DNA from: Cyanobacteria bacterium J06627_28 | Lineage (GTDB): Bacteria; Cyanobacteriota; Cyanobacteriia; Phormidesmidales; Phormidesmidaceae | Length of the DNA stretch: 64,000 nucleotides | NCBI GenBank assembly: GCA_038521595.1 | Contig: JBCBKQ010000001.1 | Location: 36,507 to 100,506, forward strand | Direction of reading: 5' to 3' | Part shown: in pieces, positions 18,443-29,308 of the stretch | Position numbering within the stretch: the stretch's first letter is position 1 | Layout of the letters: every line of letters starts with the position of its first letter | Made by a program: the position numbers and the translations under genes | Notes under the pieces: model-generated | What the model was told of the DNA's origin: nothing | Database searches by the model: none | The model's input: only the letters and a program-made list of their open reading frames with translations

Positions 18443-19150
18443 CTAGAGCCAAACACTAACTGGCTGGGGCCGAGACTGCAATCCACTCGTGAACTGCTTA
18501 ACAAAAGCACAGAACGTTTCCATCAGCACCGGGTTATACCAGCCTCTATCGGCCTCAGCAACCATAATGCGTAACGTTTCAGCAGGTGAGTAAGCGGATT
18601 TGTAGGGGCGTTTACTCGTCAGGGCATCGTAGACGTCTACGAGCTGAAAGACCTGCACTAAAAAAGGAATTTCATAACCGGCCAAACCGTCTGGGTAGCC
18701 AGAGCCGTTCCATCGTTCATGGTGATGACGGATGATGGGTAATACCGCGCTGAGGGTGCTGAGGGGCTGACAAAGTTGCTCTCCAGCGATGACGTGCTCT
18801 CGCATGATGTCAAACTCAGCGGCAGATAGCTTGCCCCGCTTGAGCAAAATATGATCTGGCGTAGTGACTTTGCCAATGTCATGGAGGTACGCCCCCCAAA
18901 CCAATACACGAATATCTCGATCCGAGAGATCTAGATATGTACCCAGGGCCTGAACCAGCTTGGCAACGCGATCGCAATGGTCAATCGTATGTGTGTCTTG
19001 CCGAGCTAATATCGGCATAAGCTGACATAGTATCTGCTCATCAGAAACCGAATCACCAGAAACCGAATCACCAGAAACCGAATCATTAAATCTGAGATGT
19101 TCAGATCCCGCCCACCCCAATAGATAATTTTTAGCAGGCTTAATTAACAT
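18443..19150 (-). CDS. HD-GYP domain protein (putative c-di-GMP phosphodiesterase)
   Basis: H..HCDRVA, LHDIGK, HHERWNGSGYPDGL. The N-terminal SGDSVSGDSVSD is encoded by a 15-bp x3 repeat at 19042-19086. Confidence 0.85.
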   Translation of the reverse strand: MLIKPAKNYLLGWAGSEHLRFNDSVSGDSVSGDSVSDEQILCQLMPILARQDTHTIDHCDRVAKLVQALGTYLDLSDRDIRVLVWGAYLHDIGKVTTPDHILLKRGKLSAAEFDIMREHVIAGEQLCQPLSTLSAVLPIIRHHHERWNGSGYPDGLAGYEIPFLVQVFQLVDVYDALTSKRPYKSAYSPAETLRIMVAEADRGWYNPVLMETFCAFVKQFTSGLQSRPQPVSVWL

Positions 19151-19754
19151 TGAGCGCCTTCACCATAGGAGTTAAGCCCCGTCCCTAAACGTAACTAGAC
19201 TGATTAAAAATCACTGGAAAGCAGCATCTGAAAGTAATAAGGCTTTCAGCATGCGACAACGACTTCTGGCTAAATAAAATGGCTAAATAAACTAGCTAAA
19301 TAAAATAAACTGATAATCTCGATTAAATGCCGTTACTTTTCAAAACTCTATTTGAAAATTACAGCTCACTTCATGGGCTCACAACAGGTAAAAGTAGAGA
19401 ATGAGAAGAGGCTTGCAGTAGAGAAAGTAGGTAGACTTTAGACTACAAGTAGGTAAGTAGAGCCTTTAAGCGACAAGCTGACAAAATGGTAATAGCATTT
19501 AAGTATCCCTTGGAGTAGCGACAAGGTAGCAACTTTGCAAATCATAATCGCCTACTGACCTATGGCAACTATGCTCTGTAGTCAGAAGTAAATCCAGCAC
19601 TCTCGCCGGTCACGTTTAGCTTTATTGCAATGCAATAACAGATCCAGAACTCGTATGGCTGTTATCAATAGTTTCGCAAAGAAGTCCTGCTGAGAGAAGG
19701 CTGCTGTATCAGGAAATTGTCAAATACTCATGGAATGACGAAACCTACGACTAC

Positions 19755-20699
19755 ATGAGTGAACGGGTAGGCTACGCCCTTAACACCATTAAGCAAGAGC
19801 ATGCGATCGCCATTTGGCGAATGCTCTCCGAATACTTTGAGACCCGCATCACCAAGAAAAACCTAAAGCTCACGGTTAGAACACTCTACAGAGATACCTA
19901 CGGCATCGCTGAACCTGCAGGGCCATGTCCAGAGGTGCCCTCGGCTAACGCAGCAACAGAAAATAGCCAGCTCACCATCGATCCATCACCCGATCCATCA
20001 CCCTTTTGTGACGTAGGACAAATCCAGAGCGACAATCACTTTTTTAATCGTCAAGAGATTCTCCAAGACATTATCTACCATCTAAAAAGTCACTGGAACA
20101 TTTCTCTCGTGGGCGAGCAAAAAATTGGGAAATCCTCTCTGCTGCTTAAGATCTGTCGAGCAGCACCAGCACTGCTAGGCCTCAACTCCGCTCAATTTAT
20201 TTATCTCAATATGGAACTCATCCATAACGAGAACATTTTGTTTCAACAGATTTGCAAAGCCATCGGCATCGAAACCTGCCGAGGCTATGACCTGCTAGAG
20301 GCCACTCAAAACAAAAAATACATCTTGTGCATCGACGAAATTGAGAAAATGGCCAAATTTAGCGGTGATGAACGCGGTGAACTGCGTGGCCTATCTGACG
20401 GCGAAGAAATGCCCTTCACGCTGATTACCGCCAGCCGCATCCCGCTAGAAAAACTCTTTCCAGACGATGCCTACTCCCCGTCTCCCTTTTTCAATATTTT
20501 TCAAACATTTACAGTCACCGGCTTCTCAGAAGCAACCACAAGCGCATTTATCAAACACCGACTCGAAGGCTGTCCGCTTCAGTTTACCGACATTCAAATT
20601 CGAGACCTGTTCCAAGAAAGTCGAGGTCATCCGGCCAAAATTCAGCAGTTAGCCCACGCACTCTATAGAAATCTGCTAGAGGGCGCACAGCAGTCATAA
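19755..20699 (+). CDS. AAA/STAND-like P-loop ATPase (AAA_35 / Arch_ATPase-like) with a small N-terminal helical domain
   Basis: Walker A GEQKIGKSS, Walker B YILCIDEIEK, and a distal SRGHPAKIQQLA signature related to the HGQPYLVQLIG motif of the neighbouring large protein. Confidence 0.7.
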   Translation: MSERVGYALNTIKQEHAIAIWRMLSEYFETRITKKNLKLTVRTLYRDTYGIAEPAGPCPEVPSANAATENSQLTIDPSPDPSPFCDVGQIQSDNHFFNRQEILQDIIYHLKSHWNISLVGEQKIGKSSLLLKICRAAPALLGLNSAQFIYLNMELIHNENILFQQICKAIGIETCRGYDLLEATQNKKYILCIDEIEKMAKFSGDERGELRGLSDGEEMPFTLITASRIPLEKLFPDDAYSPSPFFNIFQTFTVTGFSEATTSAFIKHRLEGCPLQFTDIQIRDLFQESRGHPAKIQQLAHALYRNLLEGAQQS

Positions 20700-20721
20700 C
20701 GAGGTCGACAACCTAGTGCAC

Positions 20722-20978
20722 AAAAAGCCCCTGATCAAGAATCCGTATGTCAGATGTGCTACGACTTTTGGCATCCGTTTTTTACGAGTATTCCAATTTG
20801 CGTTAGCTTTTTGTCACCAGAAAATACAAAATGACTGACCTTGAAGACAGGTGAGGTTGCTTATACTAATGGCTAATGGTGCGATCGCAAAAATCATTCA
20901 GCGCACCTATGGGCAGGCGTATTTAGTCCAGCTGATTGGCTCAAAAAATGTTCTAGGAGAACAGCTCGTGCACTCTTA
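20722..20978 (+). pseudogene. Decayed fragment of a paralogous ATPase gene
   Basis: The 20868-20978 reading frame gives MANGAIAKIIQRTYGQAYLVQLIGSKNVLGEQLVHS*. Its KIIQRTYGQAYLVQLIG aligns with KVVELTHGQPYLVQLIG of the 1049-aa protein. At 20722-20750 another frame reads KKPLIKNPYV, compared with KPLPLLNNPYI just before that protein's P-loop; this is a weak match. Confidence 0.5.
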
Positions 20979-21078
20979 GATTTGAAGAGACGCTAGCTCA
21001 AAAGCAAACAGCGCAAGGACATATAGTGACCGTATAGCGTTCAAAAGATAGCGCTTTAATCATCCATAGGCCAAGCAC

Positions 21079-24000
21079 TTGACGCTGCATAGGCTAAGCG
21101 CCAAGCGCCCCACATTAGGTGAGCTGTCGGCATTTCTGTCGGCATTGCTTGAGCCAGATAGACTATCCATACTCCAGTCCCTAATGCCCACATTTCCTGT
21201 CCCTCGCCATGAGATTCCAGCCTGTCTCAACCCTTTCAATTTGAGGCATTGGTGGCTATTGGCATATTGGGTCTACTGCTGTCCGAGCGAGCTTAAATAC
21301 TATCTGTATCGGGCAGACCCTGCATTTTATAGGGCCAAAACCAAACCATTCCTACTTCAAGCATGGCAAATCAAAGCCTACCGCAATCTCTGCCTCTGTA
21401 TTGTGCCGACGGCAGTGCTTTGCTTTGCTGCTTTTAGTCTGCCGATCTTATGGAAAACCCAGGGCCTCAACAACATTGCTTGGCAATCTTGCGTCTTAGG
21501 GTTTTTGATAGCGCTCTTTATGGGCTTCTTGCACTTACTCACCTATGGACCTGCGTTTGCCGCTTCTATGAGCAATGGTGCTGGCATGGCCAATGGCGTA
21601 ACCCTTGGGATGGCCGTCTCAGGGGCTCAGACCGTTATGCTCACCATACTGTTGGGCACATCTTTTGATTGGGACATTGGCACCTTAGTCAACGCCTCCA
21701 ATCTAAACAATAATACTGGGCTTGAGTTTATCCCACTGTTTAGCCTTGCCGTCGGGGTGGGCACTTTTCTGAGCATGGATAAAGTCGTCGGCGGGTTGGC
21801 TAGCCTACTCGTCGGGCTGACCTCTGGTGCGGGTACTTGGCTCTTACTAAAAGTTGTTGTTACCACAGTGCCCTCCATAGGGCTAACTTGCCTAGCGCTA
21901 GCTGCCATGGTGGGGCTATGCCTAAGTGGCAGCTATGGTAGCGCACCTACCATGGGGAGCCTACTGGTCGGCGCATCGATGACCGGGGCCATTATGGGCA
22001 TTGCTATTGTCGCCGGACTATCGCGCTCAGGCATTCCGATTGAGATCAGCATTCTATATGGAATTGCAGCTCTGCTTATTATTTGGGCTGGGATGTCGCG
22101 GTTCTTTCCTTTGTATGTGTTCTACGGGCTTTATCTCTCACTGGGGTCTATGCTCGCTTCTGTGTTTGGCGTGCAGATTATTCGCCGCCATCCCATCGAA
22201 TGGGATGAGCTGCTGATTTTACCGCTGCCAGGCGCTCAGCGGTATCTAGAACAAGTCTTAAACAAAAATGAAGCTCAGGGCATGGGCTTAATGGTAAGGC
22301 TGGCCAAAAACCCAATGCAAAGACCGATGGTGCAGCGCGTTTTTAAGAAATATCTATTGCAAAAAAATGAATTTATTCAAGCGCTCTATCTCTTTTTGCA
22401 AAATCCGATAGGAGATGACTACATTACGCCACCAAACTCCCCTGAAGATTGGGATCTTCTGCCAACGGGTAAACAGGTGTTGCTAGGCGAACTCAGCAGT
22501 AAGTGGGTAAATTGTGCAATTCAACCCTCTAGCTTGCAAGTAGAAAAATTTTTGGGCAGTCTTACTTGGTTTCAGCGAAATCATAAAGAACACGCCTATA
22601 TTGATTTTGCCAAGTTGCTCTATAGGCTGAGCTTTACTTTTAAAACCTATACACATACCTCAAATCTAGAAGAGCTAACGCCTAAATACAGTGATATCTT
22701 CTATCGCCCAGGGGGACAAGAAATCATCGAGTCTTTTAAGGCCGTTGTGACCTTTTCAAGCTACGAGCATCTGCATCAGCTAGCAACAGCAGAGCAGGCA
22801 GTTGTTAACCTACCGCCCGTACAGTCGGCGATTCGCCCGCAAATTATCGACACGCTCAATGCGCTAGCAGACATTGCCCAAGACATTACCATCGCTGAAA
22901 GCAGCCGTAGTTTGCTGTTGCAGCAATCGTCTTTACTACGGGCAAATAACGCCCTCGATAAACTGCGTCAAAAGATTGTGACTGACATCGTCTTACCAGA
23001 GACTAAGCTACTAGAGATTGTGATAGGGCGGTGGCTGAGGCTAGTCACAGAAACAGGCGGACAGGTCGGACGTTTGACGAAGCCGCTTCCGCTCTTGAAC
23101 AATCCATACATTATCGGCACTCCCGTTAAGGGAGAAGACTTTATTGGTCGAGATGACATCTTACGCTACATCACCGATGAGCTATTGGCAGGCACAAAGC
23201 AATGTCCGCCTATTGTGCTCTATGGTCATCGCCGTATGGGGAAAACGTCTATCCTTAAAAATCTCTCGACAAGATTAAAGTCAACTAACATTCGAGTCGT
23301 TGACTTTAATATGCAAATTGTGGGACATATTTCGAGTACAAACGAGCTTTTATATGCGCTTGCACGCCAGATAGCACGAGCTATACAAAGTTCTGACATT
23401 CTTTCGAAGATAGCCATAGACCGAACAACTTTTATAGAGCAAAATCCCTATCATGCCTTTAACAACTTTTTTCAGCGGCTAGAAAGTGCTTTAGCGTGCG
23501 CACAGTGTAACTATCGGTTTGTAATTGCGGTAGATGAGTTTGAAAAGATAGAAGAGAAAATTATTAATCAGCAGCTTTCAAAAGATTTGCTCGAATTTTT
23601 GCGAGGGCTCACCCAAACCTACTCGTGGTTTAGCATTATCTTTGCGGGCTTGCACACTATAGAAGAAATGTGTTTTGACTATTGGAGTCCTTTCTTTACC
23701 AGCATTCCTATCCGCGTTAGCTTTCTATCTGCACAATCAACAGAGCGGCTACTTCTGCAAGCGGGCGACATTGGCTACGACAGTAATGTCATTCCCAAGG
23801 TTGTTGAGCTTACCCACGGGCAGCCTTATCTTGTGCAGCTGATTGGCTATACGCTGATTCGTTTTTTTAATCGCAACCGATTAGAAAAACCAATAACTAC
23901 GTCCAAATATCCAGTGTTTAATGCGGATGATCTAGACGTTCTGATTTGTTCTCCAGAGTTTTACACCATTGGCAATGCTTACTTTCAAGGGGTCTGGCTA

Positions 24001-24228
24001 CAGGCGCAGCACGGCCAGCCAAGCGGCCAGACAGAAATCTTAAAGCAGTTGACCCTTCGACCTAGGTCTGAGGCGGAGCTTATAGAGGCGATCGCACTCC
24101 CACCAAAAATCATCATAGAAGCCCTCAGAACCCTACAGAGCCACGACGTTGTCCAGCAAAAAGAGAACCAGTTTAGTTACCAAGTAGAGCTGATGCGTCG
24201 ATGGGTCAAAGACTATCAGCTGGAATAG
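21079..24228 (+). CDS. Polytopic-membrane / helical linker / AAA-STAND-like ATPase / winged-helix fusion protein (1049 aa; TTG start uncertain)
   Basis: Residues ~95-370 hold at least seven Gly/Ala/Ser-rich hydrophobic segments. Walker A is GHRRMGKTS, Walker B FVIAVDEFEK, and the signature THGQPYLVQLIG. The C-terminal LTLRPRSEAELIEAIALPPKIIIEALRTLQSHDVV looks like a winged helix. Confidence 0.75.
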   Translation: MTLHRLSAKRPTLGELSAFLSALLEPDRLSILQSLMPTFPVPRHEIPACLNPFNLRHWWLLAYWVYCCPSELKYYLYRADPAFYRAKTKPFLLQAWQIKAYRNLCLCIVPTAVLCFAAFSLPILWKTQGLNNIAWQSCVLGFLIALFMGFLHLLTYGPAFAASMSNGAGMANGVTLGMAVSGAQTVMLTILLGTSFDWDIGTLVNASNLNNNTGLEFIPLFSLAVGVGTFLSMDKVVGGLASLLVGLTSGAGTWLLLKVVVTTVPSIGLTCLALAAMVGLCLSGSYGSAPTMGSLLVGASMTGAIMGIAIVAGLSRSGIPIEISILYGIAALLIIWAGMSRFFPLYVFYGLYLSLGSMLASVFGVQIIRRHPIEWDELLILPLPGAQRYLEQVLNKNEAQGMGLMVRLAKNPMQRPMVQRVFKKYLLQKNEFIQALYLFLQNPIGDDYITPPNSPEDWDLLPTGKQVLLGELSSKWVNCAIQPSSLQVEKFLGSLTWFQRNHKEHAYIDFAKLLYRLSFTFKTYTHTSNLEELTPKYSDIFYRPGGQEIIESFKAVVTFSSYEHLHQLATAEQAVVNLPPVQSAIRPQIIDTLNALADIAQDITIAESSRSLLLQQSSLLRANNALDKLRQKIVTDIVLPETKLLEIVIGRWLRLVTETGGQVGRLTKPLPLLNNPYIIGTPVKGEDFIGRDDILRYITDELLAGTKQCPPIVLYGHRRMGKTSILKNLSTRLKSTNIRVVDFNMQIVGHISSTNELLYALARQIARAIQSSDILSKIAIDRTTFIEQNPYHAFNNFFQRLESALACAQCNYRFVIAVDEFEKIEEKIINQQLSKDLLEFLRGLTQTYSWFSIIFAGLHTIEEMCFDYWSPFFTSIPIRVSFLSAQSTERLLLQAGDIGYDSNVIPKVVELTHGQPYLVQLIGYTLIRFFNRNRLEKPITTSKYPVFNADDLDVLICSPEFYTIGNAYFQGVWLQAQHGQPSGQTEILKQLTLRPRSEAELIEAIALPPKIIIEALRTLQSHDVVQQKENQFSYQVELMRRWVKDYQLE

Positions 24229-24272
24229 CGCTCTTTCTTATGCCTTCAATTTTGGTGCTTCATGCCAAGGCT

Positions 24273-26330
24273 TCAATTGGACGCTTCGTACACCGGATTC
24301 GCTAAGAAAACGTCCATTTTTTGATGTGAGATGGGGCGGCCCAAGTAGTAGCCTTGCAAAATATCTACGCCACAGTATCGGGCCTGCTTCAGCTGAGCTT
24401 CGGTTTCAATGCCTTCTGCAATGACCAGGTAGTCAAAAGAATGACAGAGCTGCGTGGTTTTTTGGAGCAGCTGCCTGCCTTTTTCTGCATTCTCTCTGGA
24501 GAACGCAACAATTTGACGATCTAGCTTGATTTCATGAGCGGGAATATCGATCAGCGATCGCAAACAGGCATACCCCGTACCAAAATTATCAATGGTAATG
24601 CGATGACCTGCCGCACGTAGCTGCTGAAGAGCCAGTGCGATCGCCGCTGTCTCTTTGACATAGGTTTGTTCACTAACTTCGATATTCAACAAAATTTGAG
24701 ACTGCTCTGCCTGCTGCACCAAAGACTGAACCGCACTAGCATCCGCCAAAAAATCGCTATCGAAGTTGATAGAAACAACCGGCACCGCCAGTCCAAGCTC
24801 ACGCCAGCGCAAAATATGCTCAAACACGAGAATAACTACTTTGCTATCAATAAACTTAGATAGTCCTTGCTGAGAAAGCAAAGGTAAGAACGTCGGCTCA
24901 AATACGTTTCCCTGCCGGTCTTGTAAGCGTAACAACGCCTCCAGCCCGATTACCTCTAGGGTTTTAGCATCCACTTTAGGCTGATAGTAAACGAGCAGCT
25001 GACCGTCGCGCAGCCGCTTGCGCAGCGTCTGAATCAGCGTCATTTCACGCAAACTATTTTGCTGCTGCCGGGTAAAAGAGCGCTGCTGTTGACTGTTTAA
25101 TACACGGTCTAAAAAACCATATGTTTGATCGACAAATAGCCGCTTCAGGCTCAGAGGTGCCCTGTGTTGACGAACAGCAAGACATAGAAACGGCCAGTAA
25201 ATTAAACCATCTAAAAAGATACAGCTCAGCTGTGTCAACACCGCCCACAGAGAGCCTTTGCTCACAATATACGCGTTATATAAAGGCATGGTCATCCAGT
25301 GCACAGTAGTGTCTTGAAACACCGCAAAAAATCCATGGTTTACCATAAACAACACAATGGACATGTTGACAAAAGGTACCAGGAAAAAAGGCACTAGAAA
25401 GATAGGGTTAAACAGAATAGGTAGGCCATAAAACAAGACTTCGTTGATATCGAACAACGCATATACGATACTGAGCTGACCAATAGACTTCAGCGGACTT
25501 AAACGCTTACTCGCTAAGAGCAAAAACGGAATCACAAACGTAGAGCCCGTTCCCCCAATATTCATAAACACATTGTGAAAATCAGCCATCGGTATGCCTG
25601 TATAGCCTGTCTTGGCCGGCAAATTATAAAAGACATGCAGCAAGCCTTCTGAGAAATGCTCACCGTGCACGCCGACAAACCAAGCACTCGACGCAATCAC
25701 CCTAAACAAAATGAGTTCTTGCAGCTCACTGAGATCAGCAAATGTTGGAGCCAGCGCAGTTAATACCGAGGTAGACATCTGCGCTAAAGTGGCAAACAGC
25801 AGATGCCCTAACACTTCGAACGACAAAATCGTCAGCAAACTAGGCAGCAGTAGCTTGAATGTCTGCTTCAGACGAGGGCTGATATCAGTAACATTTTGTA
25901 AAAGCCAGAGCGACGGAATATTAGATAAATACTGCCATAGCCTAACGGCACTCCAGGTAAAAATAATACTGGTAAAAACAGAACCGTTAATCGAGCCCAG
26001 CACCGAGCCATCTACACTGCTAAAGAGCCCTGAGCCTCGAATAAAGCAAACCATTGAGATCAAAATGGTGCTGATAGGAGCGAGCCCCTTGGCACTGGCG
26101 AGCAAGCTACTAAATGCCAGATTAAAAAATAGCGGGATTAAAAAGATGTAAACGTCATTAATCTCATTTCCATTGATTAGCTCAACGCCCAGCCAACCTT
26201 CTGCTTGTAAAAACCAGCTCACCCCAGAGAGCAAAACGATTGTGTTAATCGTTAAGGCGACAGGCAATAGAGAGAGAAAAGCCTCCCAGATGATGTGGAT
26301 ATCTTCAGGGATGGCGAACTTTTTGAGCAT
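24273..26330 (-). CDS. Membrane protein with a PTS-EIIC-like N-terminal permease domain fused to an EAL (c-di-GMP phosphodiesterase) domain
   Basis: About 400 aa of polytopic membrane domain, then EAL motifs: GLEALLRL, DNFGTGYA, IKLDRQ, VIAEGIET, QGYYLGRP. Confidence 0.8.
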   Translation of the reverse strand: MLKKFAIPEDIHIIWEAFLSLLPVALTINTIVLLSGVSWFLQAEGWLGVELINGNEINDVYIFLIPLFFNLAFSSLLASAKGLAPISTILISMVCFIRGSGLFSSVDGSVLGSINGSVFTSIIFTWSAVRLWQYLSNIPSLWLLQNVTDISPRLKQTFKLLLPSLLTILSFEVLGHLLFATLAQMSTSVLTALAPTFADLSELQELILFRVIASSAWFVGVHGEHFSEGLLHVFYNLPAKTGYTGIPMADFHNVFMNIGGTGSTFVIPFLLLASKRLSPLKSIGQLSIVYALFDINEVLFYGLPILFNPIFLVPFFLVPFVNMSIVLFMVNHGFFAVFQDTTVHWMTMPLYNAYIVSKGSLWAVLTQLSCIFLDGLIYWPFLCLAVRQHRAPLSLKRLFVDQTYGFLDRVLNSQQQRSFTRQQQNSLREMTLIQTLRKRLRDGQLLVYYQPKVDAKTLEVIGLEALLRLQDRQGNVFEPTFLPLLSQQGLSKFIDSKVVILVFEHILRWRELGLAVPVVSINFDSDFLADASAVQSLVQQAEQSQILLNIEVSEQTYVKETAAIALALQQLRAAGHRITIDNFGTGYACLRSLIDIPAHEIKLDRQIVAFSRENAEKGRQLLQKTTQLCHSFDYLVIAEGIETEAQLKQARYCGVDILQGYYLGRPISHQKMDVFLANPVYEASN

Positions 26331-27460: not shown

Positions 27461-27787
27461 TTGCGAAGGTCGTGGGAAATTCGAGGCTACGAGAATGACA
27501 AAGGGATACGGCCTTTTGAAGCCTGGATCTCAACGCTGAGTGAAGCAACGCGCATTAGAGTGGAAGAGCGTCTCGATAGATTAACCTACGGAAATTTTGG
27601 TGACCATAAGGCAGTTGGCAAAGGGGTATACGAGCCAAGATTATTTTTTGGCCCTGGCTACCGCATTTACTATGCAATTTCAGGTAAACGGATCGTTTTG
27701 CTGTTAGCGGGTGGAGACAAAAAGAGTCAGTCCAAAGATATTAGGAAAGCACAAAGCTACTGGAATCAATACCAATCGGAGCAATAA
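27461..27787 (+). CDS. RelE/ParE-superfamily toxin ('addiction module killer', HigB/Gp49-like); TTG start
   Basis: The pattern W...L......RIRVEERLDRLTYGNFGDHKAVGKGVYEPRLFFGPGYRIYY...GKRIVLLLAGGDKKSQSKDI matches the family as I recall it. Confidence 0.75.
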   Translation: MRRSWEIRGYENDKGIRPFEAWISTLSEATRIRVEERLDRLTYGNFGDHKAVGKGVYEPRLFFGPGYRIYYAISGKRIVLLLAGGDKKSQSKDIRKAQSYWNQYQSEQ

Positions 27788-27800
27788 GGACTCTTTAAGG

Positions 27801-28121
27801 ATGCCATCGTATAGCTATCGCAAAGCCCAGGTAGAAAAGTTGATCGCAGATGCTGACTATACCTCGCTGTACTTAGAGGTCTCCTTTAGCGAAGCGCTGA
27901 AAGACGGGTTTGTAGGTGGTTTCTTAATCGCCCTAGAAAATGCCGTGGAGGCCTCCAATCGCAGGGAAAGCAAACCGACTAAAGCAGATATTTTGAGACA
28001 ACAACTTTATGATGAGCTCAACCCCCAAGAAGATCTCACAATTGAGACGGTGAAGAGTGTCTTAAAAAAGGTTGGTCTCACTCACAAACTCAAACCAGAA
28101 AGCACCCCAGTCTTTAGCTAA
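27801..28121 (+). CDS. Putative cognate antitoxin (addiction module antidote-like), 106 aa from ATG 27801
   Basis: It sits immediately downstream of the toxin. The N-terminal pattern (SYRKAQVEKLIADADYTSLYLEVSFSEALKDGFVGGFLIALENAVEA) resembles antidote proteins paired with this toxin family. I did not clearly see an HTH. Confidence 0.55.
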   Translation: MPSYSYRKAQVEKLIADADYTSLYLEVSFSEALKDGFVGGFLIALENAVEASNRRESKPTKADILRQQLYDELNPQEDLTIETVKSVLKKVGLTHKLKPESTPVFS

Positions 28122-28141
28122 AGAGTTAATAGCCACCTACA

Positions 28142-29308
28142 CTACGTTTTGCCCATGGCTGCTTTAACGGCGGCGCGCTGATCGCGGCGGGTAATCCAAC
28201 GGTGGTAGGTGCGATTATGCACGGCGACAGAATGACCCATCATGCGAGCTGAGACGGTGTCGGGGAGGCCGACGCCAATGGTACGCACGGCCCAAGCGTG
28301 GCGAAGGTCGTAGGGCGAGAAGGGAACTTTGTAGCGTTTGAACTGTTTAGAGACCTGCTGACCAATGAGCTGGAGGGTCGTTTTGCTCAGGTCGGTGTTG
28401 ACTTTAGGTAAGCGAATGTCTCTAAGCTCAAAGGCGTCTACCCATTCCGGGTGGAAGGGCCAGACATCATGGAGGCCGGTTTTGGTAGATTCTAAAACTT
28501 CGATGGCGGCTTCTTCATCGCCGCTGGCGAGCATGGCGTAGTCACTGAAAAATACTTCGTGGTTGCGCAGGCCATAGGTGGCCATAATGCCGTAGACGAA
28601 CTGCCACTGTGGGTTTGGAATTGCCTTGTAAGTAGAGAGGATTTCTTCGTCGGTGGGAAGCTGGCGAAGCTGAGTTTTGCTATTGCCGTAGTTGCCCCAT
28701 AGGGATTTGAGGGGGGTGGGCAGGGGCGTGTTGAGAAAGGTGGCAAGGGCATCTAGGGCGGTGCAGCACACCTGACGGCTGCGGGAGTTGGCTTTGGTGC
28801 TTTGGACGGTGGCGTAGATGGCTTCGGGGAGGGAGAAGCTGGGGTGTTTGAGTGCGATCGCATTTAATTTGCGCAGGTAAGGCACATAGGCTTTTTCCCA
28901 CGTTGTCCGCAGAGAAGATGGCTTACCCAACCCCTCACGACTCTGAAAAAAATGTACTTCAAAGGCCGCTATCTGCTCAGATACGTCAGCTCCAGCTCGC
29001 TTTAATCCGGCAACTGGCCCCAGATAGTCCTGCCAGTCGAACGTGTTTTCAATCAGCTGAGCTGCAATCACTTTTGCTGTCTTTTCAATTTGCTTGAGAC
29101 CGGCTTTATTGGCGGGCAGCCCCAGCGGAATACGCTGCTGATAGGCTTTGAGCCTAGGACTATTGGGTCTGGGGGGGAGCGTACCGCGCAGACTCAACTT
29201 GTCGCCTCGGCGCTCTATTTTGAGGCCTAGCTTGGCAGCTTTGAAGCGGGTATTGACGGCGGTCAGGGACACATCAAGCGGATGAGTCGTCATAGGGCAG
29301 CAAGTCAC
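28142..29308 (-). CDS. Tyrosine-type site-specific recombinase/integrase
   Basis: C-terminal catalytic region YDLRHAWAVRTIGVGLPDTVSARMMGHSVAVHNRTYHRW, which contains the R, H-x-x-R and Y elements. Confidence 0.85.
   Translation of the reverse strand: MTCCPMTTHPLDVSLTAVNTRFKAAKLGLKIERRGDKLSLRGTLPPRPNSPRLKAYQQRIPLGLPANKAGLKQIEKTAKVIAAQLIENTFDWQDYLGPVAGLKRAGADVSEQIAAFEVHFFQSREGLGKPSSLRTTWEKAYVPYLRKLNAIALKHPSFSLPEAIYATVQSTKANSRSRQVCCTALDALATFLNTPLPTPLKSLWGNYGNSKTQLRQLPTDEEILSTYKAIPNPQWQFVYGIMATYGLRNHEVFFSDYAMLASGDEEAAIEVLESTKTGLHDVWPFHPEWVDAFELRDIRLPKVNTDLSKTTLQLIGQQVSKQFKRYKVPFSPYDLRHAWAVRTIGVGLPDTVSARMMGHSVAVHNRTYHRWITRRDQRAAVKAAMGKT

Follow-up and report, generated by a model that had tools for sequence, protein, structure and literature searches.

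We analyzed a locus at positions 19755-24228 of a 64,000-nt stretch of DNA (the window) from Cyanobacteria bacterium J06627_28 (assembly GCA_038521595.1, contig JBCBKQ010000001.1). This locus encodes a small soluble ATPase that carries a predicted N-terminal helix-turn-helix (HTH) domain and a large membrane-embedded ATPase of the STAND class (signal transduction ATPases with numerous domains), and together the two look like an undescribed two-protein immune or signalling switch and not like a transporter. A preliminary description, made from the sequence alone, had reported two genes on the same strand, and both open reading frames (ORFs) were confirmed on the + strand, where the mechanical predictions run from 19755 to 20699 and from 21079 to 24228. 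Their start sites were revised from homologues as explained below, and the proteins were examined with AlphaFold2 (AF2) models and hidden Markov models (HMMs). The features of the locus, including the nucleoside triphosphatase (NTPase) motifs and the winged-helix domain (WHD) of the large protein, are the following.

19635..20699, + strand: small partner gene, 354 aa from 19635 (ATA) or 314 aa from the internal ATG 19755
19635..19904, + strand: N-terminal helical HTH domain of the small protein, residues 1-90 (AF2; HMM)
20001..20696, + strand: NTPase core of the small protein (motifs, alignment)
20001-20063, + strand: lead-in PFxDxGxI...FFxR of the small NTPase core
20112-20138, + strand: Walker A GEQKIGKSS, residues 160-168
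20319-20348, + strand: Walker B YILCIDEIEK, residues 229-238
20619-20654, + strand: GHP lid motif SRGHPAKIQQLA, residues 329-340
20701..20940, + strand: pseudogene remnant of a large-type NTPase (tblastn, HMM)
21184..24228, + strand: large gene, membrane-embedded STAND NTPase (homologue starts, database copy P0001, AF2)
21184..21399, + strand: N-terminal head of the large protein, residues 1-72, strongly conserved and net basic
21400..22167, + strand: polytopic membrane region, residues 73-328, about nine hydrophobic helices (AF2, hydropathy)
22168..23091, + strand: all-helical region of about 300 aa (about residues 351-631) after the junction motif, which the interval includes (AF2, alignment)
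22189-22233, + strand: invariant junction motif HPxEWDELxxLPLPG, residues 336-350 (family alignment)
23092..24225, + strand: complete STAND module, residues 637-1014 (Pfam, Foldseek, AF2 secondary structure)
23098-23163, + strand: NPY lead-in of the large STAND module
23224-23250, + strand: Walker A GHRRMGKTS, residues 681-689
23518-23547, + strand: Walker B FVIAVDEFEK, residues 779-788
23812-23847, + strand: GQP lid motif THGQPYLVQLIG, residues 877-888 (GQP at 879-881)
24019-24225, + strand: WHD of the large STAND module

The mechanical ORF of the large gene opens at TTG 21079 and had been read as a protein of 1049 aa. All 20 aligned homologues of the large protein begin with the invariant sequence MPTFP, so the gene starts at ATG 21184 and the protein is 1014 aa long; the database copy P0001 has the same length and is 100 % identical. 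The small gene was corrected in the opposite direction. Its frame is open upstream as far as a stop codon at 19617-19619, and in the sister strain Cyanobacteria bacterium J06631_9 (99 % identical) the small protein has 354 aa, begins with MTDPELVW and starts 40 codons upstream of ATG 19755, at a codon that is ATG in the sister strain and ATA in the window (19635-19637). Only one other substitution separates the two strains over these 40 extra codons (19635-19754). They code for the first half of the HTH domain and are therefore not spacer, which revises both the earlier length of 314 aa and the earlier view of 19151-19754 as one long non-coding stretch. Initiation at the internal ATG 19755 would split the HTH of the small protein in half. 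We also observed that an out-of-frame mini-ORF, ATG-CAA-TAA (19630-19638), overlaps the start site at 19635-19637.

The AF2 model of the small protein (predicted local distance difference test score, pLDDT, 88.9) consists of a five-helix N-terminal domain (residues 4-89; helices 4-16, 19-33, 38-45, 49-68 and 77-89), a disordered linker (94-117) and an AAA+ nucleotide-binding domain (NBD) with a helical lid. In precomputed annotation HTH_VMAP-M9 (PF26355) is assigned to the 99 %-identical protein P0029 and to orthologues, and a purpose-built HMM of the HTH domain matched window positions 19620-20696 at 7e-37. Half of this domain lies upstream of the first canonical start codon, and the ATA start explains why the preliminary description missed it. 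A word-indexed search with the HTH profile gave only five short proteins, and an exhaustive search was used in its place. The latter recovered 1398 representative clusters in which the domain is almost always located at the extreme N-terminus; among 76 multi-domain examples, 48 contain NB-ARC, 34 NACHT and 16 WD40. Judged from these profile matches, the family is a common occupant of the N-terminal effector position in cyanobacterial STAND proteins. Against PDB and Pfam the HTH profile gave weak HTH-type matches only (Sigma70_r4, HTH_Mga and HTH_28 at E about 0.01), and the sequence-level support for DNA binding by HTH_VMAP-M9 is weak.

The ATPase part of the small protein is short. Within its family (36 homologues), G165, K166, S167, S168 and D234 are invariant and E235 is nearly so. 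In the window protein, as in each of the 36 homologues, at most about 15 residues follow the GHP helix, and because the chain stops right after this lid helix the protein has no WHD. A C-terminal FGS/C-type-lectin sensor is absent from the small protein and from every one of the 36 homologues. Foldseek matched the small model to ORC, Cdc6 and RFC, and also to 2qen and 2fna. With the nSTAND1 model (PF20703) the window protein scored 16.0 bits (E=0.0099), under the gathering threshold of 27.1 bits. Its orthologous partners (40-45 % identity) pass the threshold with 31-40 bits (1e-7 to 1e-10) yet cover only model positions about 11-230 or 11-240 of 379, so that the small ATPase represents an nSTAND1-related, C-terminally truncated subfamily.

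The layout of the large protein was read from its AF2 model (mean pLDDT 81.3) together with hydropathy and the family alignment. The head (residues 1-72) has invariant residues M1, F4, P5, P12, W29, Y40 and L41 and is probably cytoplasmic. Its MPTFP terminus (21184-21198) is invariant or nearly so across homologues that are otherwise 30-50 % identical. This conservation suggests that the terminal peptide has a function, perhaps in docking, as a cleavage site or through processing to an N-terminal Pro. The head is followed by the polytopic membrane region, which the preliminary description had correctly recognized as an N-terminal membrane domain. The loops between its helices comprise 2-3 residues and are uncharged, its composition is dominated by Gly (14 %), Ala (11 %) and Ser (10 %), together about 34 %, its sequence is weakly conserved and its length varies among homologues. 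In some homologues a WD40 propeller is inserted behind the first membrane helix. The helical region of about 300 aa beyond the junction motif has no detectable relatives, with no match in Pfam, NCBIfam or PDB. The whole stretch from the head to the end of the helical region is here called the N-module (residues 1-636). It matched nothing in Pfam, NCBIfam, PADLOC or the PDB sequences, also when searched as a profile, and the membrane domain in particular matched no transporter family. PDB sequence searches with the two whole proteins were likewise without significant matches, and one to eIF3b at E=0.014 was taken as chance. Two homologues, P0016 (1473 aa) and P0021 (614 aa), carry a second head motif (FPxYRGxLPQCLxPLN...YWVYFRPTALNCYLYQA) downstream of the helical region and, from their sequences, look like tandem fusions of N-modules.

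Residues 637-1014 form the STAND module of the large protein. It passes the Pfam cutoffs of AAA_16 (40.0 bits, cutoff 32.6; 7.6e-10), AAA_35 (35.8 bits, cutoff 27; 5e-9) and ATPase_2 (35.8 bits, cutoff 33.2; 9.5e-9), in agreement with the AAA_35/Arch-ATPase relationship given in the preliminary description. The family alignment shows no variation at G686 and a conservation of 90 % or more at K687, S689, D784 and E787. When the full-length model was used as a Foldseek query, the matches were dominated by the NTPase: the best was 2qen (PAB2304, 8.7e-6), then 2fna (SSO1545, 9e-5), next the plant nucleotide-binding leucine-rich repeat receptors (NLRs) NRC3, Sr35, RPP1 and Roq1, and then Apaf-1. 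The viral structure library gave nothing at E<=0.001. A WHD belongs to every STAND module. In the AF2 model, helices at 869-943 are followed by a helix at 949-986 and by strands at 990-993 and 996-999, and since the fold matches are PAB2304 and SSO1545 followed by NLRs, the winged helix at the C-terminus is an intrinsic part of the STAND module, namely its WHD, and not the appended DNA-binding output that had been supposed. The chain ends 12 residues past the WHD strands, and a repeat sensor (WD40, TPR or LRR) is missing from its C-terminus.

All six motifs quoted in the preliminary description are present in the two proteins, and the distance from the P-loop to the GxP motif, about 171 aa in the small protein and about 198 aa in the large one, agrees with the 170-200 aa given there. 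The two ATPases are detectably related: BLASTP aligned the small and large cores over the Walker B to GxP stretch (E=1e-4), each protein matched the family HMM of the other at 1e-5 to 1e-10, and the lead-in NP[FY]..G...F.[GD]R is common to both. They nevertheless belong to different clades, the small one being nSTAND1-like and the large one AAA_16/AAA_35/ATPase_2-like, and are for this reason not close paralogues. The claim of a shared ATPase family thus holds in the broad sense, but the word paralog was too strong.

To place the pair in context we scanned one genome per species, which gave 64 related loci. Pairing was assessed by ORF-level HMM searches and neighbourhood look-ups in the 34 distinct loci whose large gene is full-length, encodes the NTPase and is preceded by 1.5 kb or more of sequence. 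In 31 of these the next gene upstream, on the same strand, encodes a small ATPase (E 1e-60 to 1e-160), so the co-occurrence that the preliminary description had proposed to check is indeed the common state, and the pair is conserved and operon-like. The two genes mostly overlap or lie no more than 20 nt apart, and six further loci truncated by contig ends show the same gene order. Over the constant ATPase core of the partner the N-terminus is variable, with eight domain types: HTH_VMAP-M9, EAD4, EAD7+caspase, caspase, CHAT, Trypsin_2, TIR_2 and HNH, or no domain at all. HTH_VMAP-M9 occurs in the subclade to which the window pair belongs. The hosts are mainly filamentous cyanobacteria, Chloroflexota and Parabeggiatoa/Thiotrichaceae, with a few others, and transposases or recombinases flank some of the related loci. 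No conserved target genes were found beside the pair in the neighbourhoods of the related loci.

The N-module was also found without the NTPase or the partner (loci L041-L065, e.g. L046:6001-8817 and L041:5992-7722). In Moduliflexus and Anaerolineae this stand-alone form measures about 575 aa. In Oscillatoriales, namely Laspinema, Oscillatoria, Phormidium and Microcoleus, it is about 935 aa long and contains a WD40 propeller inserted after the first transmembrane (TM) helix. Moduliflexus/KSB3 has the NTPase-less form only. Synteny around the stand-alone genes is stable within each lineage; neighbours conserved across lineages were not found.

Scans of both proteins and of orthologues with PADLOC, NCBIfam and Pfam models matched no named defence system, as the preliminary description had suspected, and PADLOC gave weak partial P-loop matches only. 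The VMAP ternary system (MoxR-vWA-VMAP) was considered and rejected, as there are no MoxR or vWA genes within several kb of the pair and none in the related loci. Neither the pair nor the membrane N-module turned up in PMC7159879, PMC8195603, a 2026 STAND survey or full-text searches, a negative that covers the supplementary tables in part, so that an earlier listing there is conceivable; a search of supplement text of PMC7159879 gave no match. The parts themselves, nSTAND1, the EADs and HTH_VMAP-M9, had already been described computationally (PMC7159879, PMC8195603), as had the idea of two-STAND operons such as nSTAND2 (PMC8195603).

The closest described systems each share part of this organization. 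The nSTAND1 conflict systems (Kaur, Iyer, Burroughs & Aravind 2021, PMC8195603; PF20703) likewise have an nSTAND1-like core, and their N-terminal repertoire of TIR, caspase, trypsin and EAD7 is the same as that of the small partners. However, nSTAND1 proteins as described there consist of one chain that ends in an FGS/lectin sensor (PMC8195603), whereas the small partner stops after the lid and has its own partner, a membrane STAND encoded by another gene. Another comparison is the mobile nSTAND2 operon of two genes (PMC8195603, Figure 6C), whose products are both STAND NTPases and are predicted to form a hetero-multimer, but it involves another STAND clade and, in the text consulted, has no membrane module and has GT4 fusions as effectors. 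The best fold and profile matches of the NBD, helical domain and WHD of the large protein are Arch-ATPase/MNS-type STANDs (the archaeal PAB2304, 2qen, and SSO1545, 2fna; ATPase_2, AAA_35). These are soluble proteins of about 350 aa, whereas in the large protein the module follows the 636-aa N-module and is paired with a second ATPase. The antiviral STANDs Avs and bNACHT are effector-swapping NTP-dependent conflict systems as well, but Avs proteins are single-chain and have C-terminal TPR or other sensors. EACC1 (PMC7159879) resembles the pair in combining a conserved Gly-rich TM component with an effector-bearing protein and in being enriched in multicellular bacteria; it differs in having one TM helix, a caspase partner and no NTPase pair. 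None of the PADLOC models for Avs, bNACHT or EACC1 matched the two proteins. By analogy, and in organization only, the pair may be likened to the paired NLRs of plants and animals (sensor NLR/NRC helpers; NAIP/NLRC4), in which sensing is followed by execution through templated oligomerization. Those are likewise encoded by adjacent genes, and NRC3, Sr35, RPP1 and Roq1 are among the top structural matches. In contrast to paired NLRs, the bacterial "helper" would have neither WHD nor sensor and the "sensor" would be an integral membrane protein.

We give about even chances to the reading that the pair is a sensor/helper STAND system, with the membrane STAND as sensor or scaffold and the mini-STAND as the protein that delivers the output. 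NTP-dependent conflict systems are recognized by an effector slot that varies strongly on a core that stays constant (PMC7159879, PMC8195603), and precisely this arrangement, with all eight N-terminal types at one position, was found here. Because the variable slot sits on the small protein, this protein is most likely the output carrier, and because it has neither WHD nor sensor, regulation of the small protein by itself is unlikely. Both families show invariant or almost invariant Walker A and B residues, and the STAND module of the large protein is predicted to be complete and catalytically competent. Further support comes from the pairing of the two genes, from their correlated divergence, from the NLR-like fold of the large protein, from the usual place of the HTH family at the effector end of NB-ARC and NACHT proteins, from the distribution in mainly filamentous bacteria and from the spacer remnant as a sign of gene turnover. 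The earlier proposal of a two-gene NTPase switch with a membrane or transport output stands as regards the two-gene module; the comparative data point to the N-terminus of the small partner as the effector position instead.

In such a sensor/helper system the large protein would be the constant, membrane-anchored part, with its head, Gly-rich polytopic region and helical region serving as sensor or scaffold, and the small protein would be a WHD-less mini-STAND with an exchangeable N-terminal output. A membrane or envelope cue such as infection or damage would free the large protein from an ADP-locked state. The large protein would then oligomerize and recruit or template the small ATPase through shared NBD and lid surfaces, and the N-terminal domains of the small protein would become clustered. 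In sister systems, clustering might activate proteases, TIR or HNH and lead to cell suicide or immunity; in the window pair, clustering of the HTH might produce a transcriptional or DNA-binding response or recruit other HTH_VMAP-M9 proteins. Pairing, domain anatomy, intact motifs, effector swapping and phyletic pattern are observed, and we infer from them that the proteins hetero-oligomerize, that the cue comes from the membrane, which way the signal runs and that the pair acts in immunity. A narrower version can be put forward only tentatively, and we hold it to be doubtful: the pair would be a bacterial counterpart of sensor/helper NLR pairs, in which the membrane STAND detects an envelope event and nucleates a hetero-oligomer with the effector-bearing, WHD-less mini-STAND, some variants possibly sensing via a periplasmic WD40 propeller. 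If true, this would be the first prokaryotic counterpart of templated activation of the NAIP/NLRC4 or sensor/NRC type and the first membrane-embedded STAND receptor, and with the N-module of 636 aa a new fold for membrane sensing would be at hand, able to work alone as well. A pair that splits sensing or scaffolding from effector delivery would extend the helper-NLR principle to bacteria and would point to surveillance of the cell envelope. It is a defined, testable unit whose natural variants with TIR, caspase or HNH should give easy read-outs, and it brings to notice a membrane module of roughly 600 aa that had no annotation.

Several observations weigh against the sensor/helper reading. Three of the 34 loci have a solo large gene without a partner, and two of these are WD40-insert variants. 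The N-module is a syntenically stable gene without NTPase or partner in Oscillatoriales and Moduliflexus, and for this reason it may have an independent and possibly non-immune function. The identity matrices of the small core and the large NTPase are correlated (r=0.69, with 0 of 2000 permutations as high; the two halves of the large protein, for comparison, correlate at 0.75), which speaks for co-inheritance of the two genes, but this correlated divergence could simply reflect shared ancestry. Some hosts are unicellular, for example Cyanobium. Searches of phage collections gave no match, and plasmid collections yielded no full-length copy, only partial NTPase matches on two Acinetobacter plasmids. 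PADLOC-DB v2 contains no full-length match, its hits being PDC-S01 (28 bits over about 100 residues) and mad8. The immediate flanks of the pair are housekeeping and cyclic di-GMP (c-di-GMP) genes and do not form a defence island. Coupling and expression of the two genes are uncertain in this strain, where the ATG start of the small gene is lost and the large gene follows only after a spacer of 484 nt. Literature searches found no experimental reports on any member.

Other explanations of the pair were weighed against the same data. That it is a non-immune, signal-transducing transcription regulator like MalT, AfsR or GutR, in which the membrane STAND senses and the HTH mini-STAND switches genes, is unlikely in our view, although the output domain is an HTH in the window and its closest relatives, this HTH family is widespread at STAND N-termini and the flanks encode c-di-GMP signalling proteins. 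There is also precedent, as bacterial STANDs were first characterized as NTP-dependent transcription regulators (cited in PMC7159879). Like the pair, regulators of the MalT type combine a STAND ATPase with an HTH that resembles that of the LuxR/sigma-70 region 4 type; the HTH of the pair, however, is N-terminal on a separate mini-ATPase that has no sensor repeats and has a membrane partner. What speaks against a regulator is that in orthologous pairs the HTH is replaced at the same position by enzymes (TIR, caspase, CHAT, trypsin or HNH), a kind of swapping that is atypical of regulators. In addition, HTH_VMAP-M9 has only its weak Pfam HTH matches, and conserved target genes are missing beside the pair. 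Alternatively, the membrane domain might itself be the effector: the Gly-rich helices of the oligomerized large protein would perforate or depolarize the membrane, and the small ATPase would sense or regulate. The TM effectors of CBASS, Pycsar and some Avs systems act on the membrane, and the N-terminus is the classical effector position in STAND proteins. The membrane region is also of low complexity, Gly/Ala/Ser-rich and poorly conserved, with 36 small-xxx-small motifs and with loops that are uncharged and very short, and a repeat sensor is missing at the C-terminus of the large protein. We nonetheless consider this distinctly unlikely, because the partner already bears bona fide effectors and because a stable stand-alone N-module is hard to square with a latent pore-former deprived of its regulator. 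Nine helices, a 72-aa head and a 300-aa helical domain moreover exceed the known effectors with 2-4 TM helices, and the WD40 insertions suggest ligand binding.

There is a small chance that the module is decaying or silent in this strain, with its start codon lost, its operon disrupted and no current function. The ATA found at 19635, where the 99 %-identical sister strain has ATG, would fit such decay, as would the spacer, which holds a pseudogene remnant where most loci have gaps of 0-20 nt, and the lack of a convincing promoter signal above background. Yet both long ORFs are intact with all catalytic motifs, and the upstream 40 codons are still open with a single further substitution. Initiation at a non-canonical codon such as ATA may occur here, and the sister strain, which has a normal ATG, possesses the same spacer and remnant. 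A housekeeping membrane ATPase or transporter-like machine (an energized transporter or an assembly factor), for which the fusion of a polytopic membrane domain to an ATPase and the transport output suggested in the preliminary description would speak, is effectively excluded: nothing in Pfam, NCBIfam or PDB links the protein to a transporter family, the ATPase has the build of a STAND/ORC switch rather than that of an ABC, P-type or AAA unfoldase motor, the distribution is patchy and TIR, caspase or HNH domains occur on the partners.

Small and large gene are separated by a spacer of 484 nt (20700-21183). The part of it at 20700-21078 had been described as non-coding but contains the decayed fragment of a large-type NTPase listed above. 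In this remnant an NPY lead-in is joined by an internal deletion to a stretch matching residues 825-888, with one in-frame stop and one frameshift. Tblastn aligned 20742-20864 and 20875-20940 to the current large gene with 54-55 % identity (E=3e-13), and the HMM matches were 1e-7 and 8e-6. No such remnant was found in the spacers of other loci that were searched. The remnant is about equally distant from every member of the HTH-paired subclade, and its sequence points to old gene turnover or replacement at this locus.

In base composition the locus is modestly A/T-richer than its surroundings, as had been noted by eye. The GC content of the two genes is 0.468 and 0.470, compared with a mean of 0.521 (sd 0.027) for the long ORFs of the window, a difference of about 1.9 sd, and the GC content at third codon positions is 0.50 for the pair and 0.554 for the window ORFs. 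The adjacent EAL gene is equally low in GC, so this bias is weak evidence for a foreign origin. The spacer upstream of the small gene is AT-rich (GC 0.40) and contains, at 19253-19330, short direct repeats of the type GGCTAAATAAA / CTAAATAAAATAAA. An Rfam scan of 18900-24600 gave no match, and promoter and terminator scans of the locus gave signals no better than those of shuffled sequence.

No tRNA gene was found in the window, and the pair is accordingly not part of a tRNA-linked island. It is flanked by two genes on the opposite strand (18443-19150 and 24273-26330, both - strand), which encode putative c-di-GMP phosphodiesterase-type proteins: one has an HD_5 (HD-GYP-like) domain and the other an EAL domain fused to a PTS_EIIC-like membrane domain, an unusual architecture. 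Further downstream, at 27461-28121, a Gp49/HigB-like toxin ORF overlaps a putative antitoxin ORF, and beside these (within 27461-29308) lies an opposite-strand ORF of 388 aa that is tyrosine recombinase-like and has no Pfam match. With this toxin and recombinase stretch a mobile region may begin, 3-5 kb downstream of the pair.

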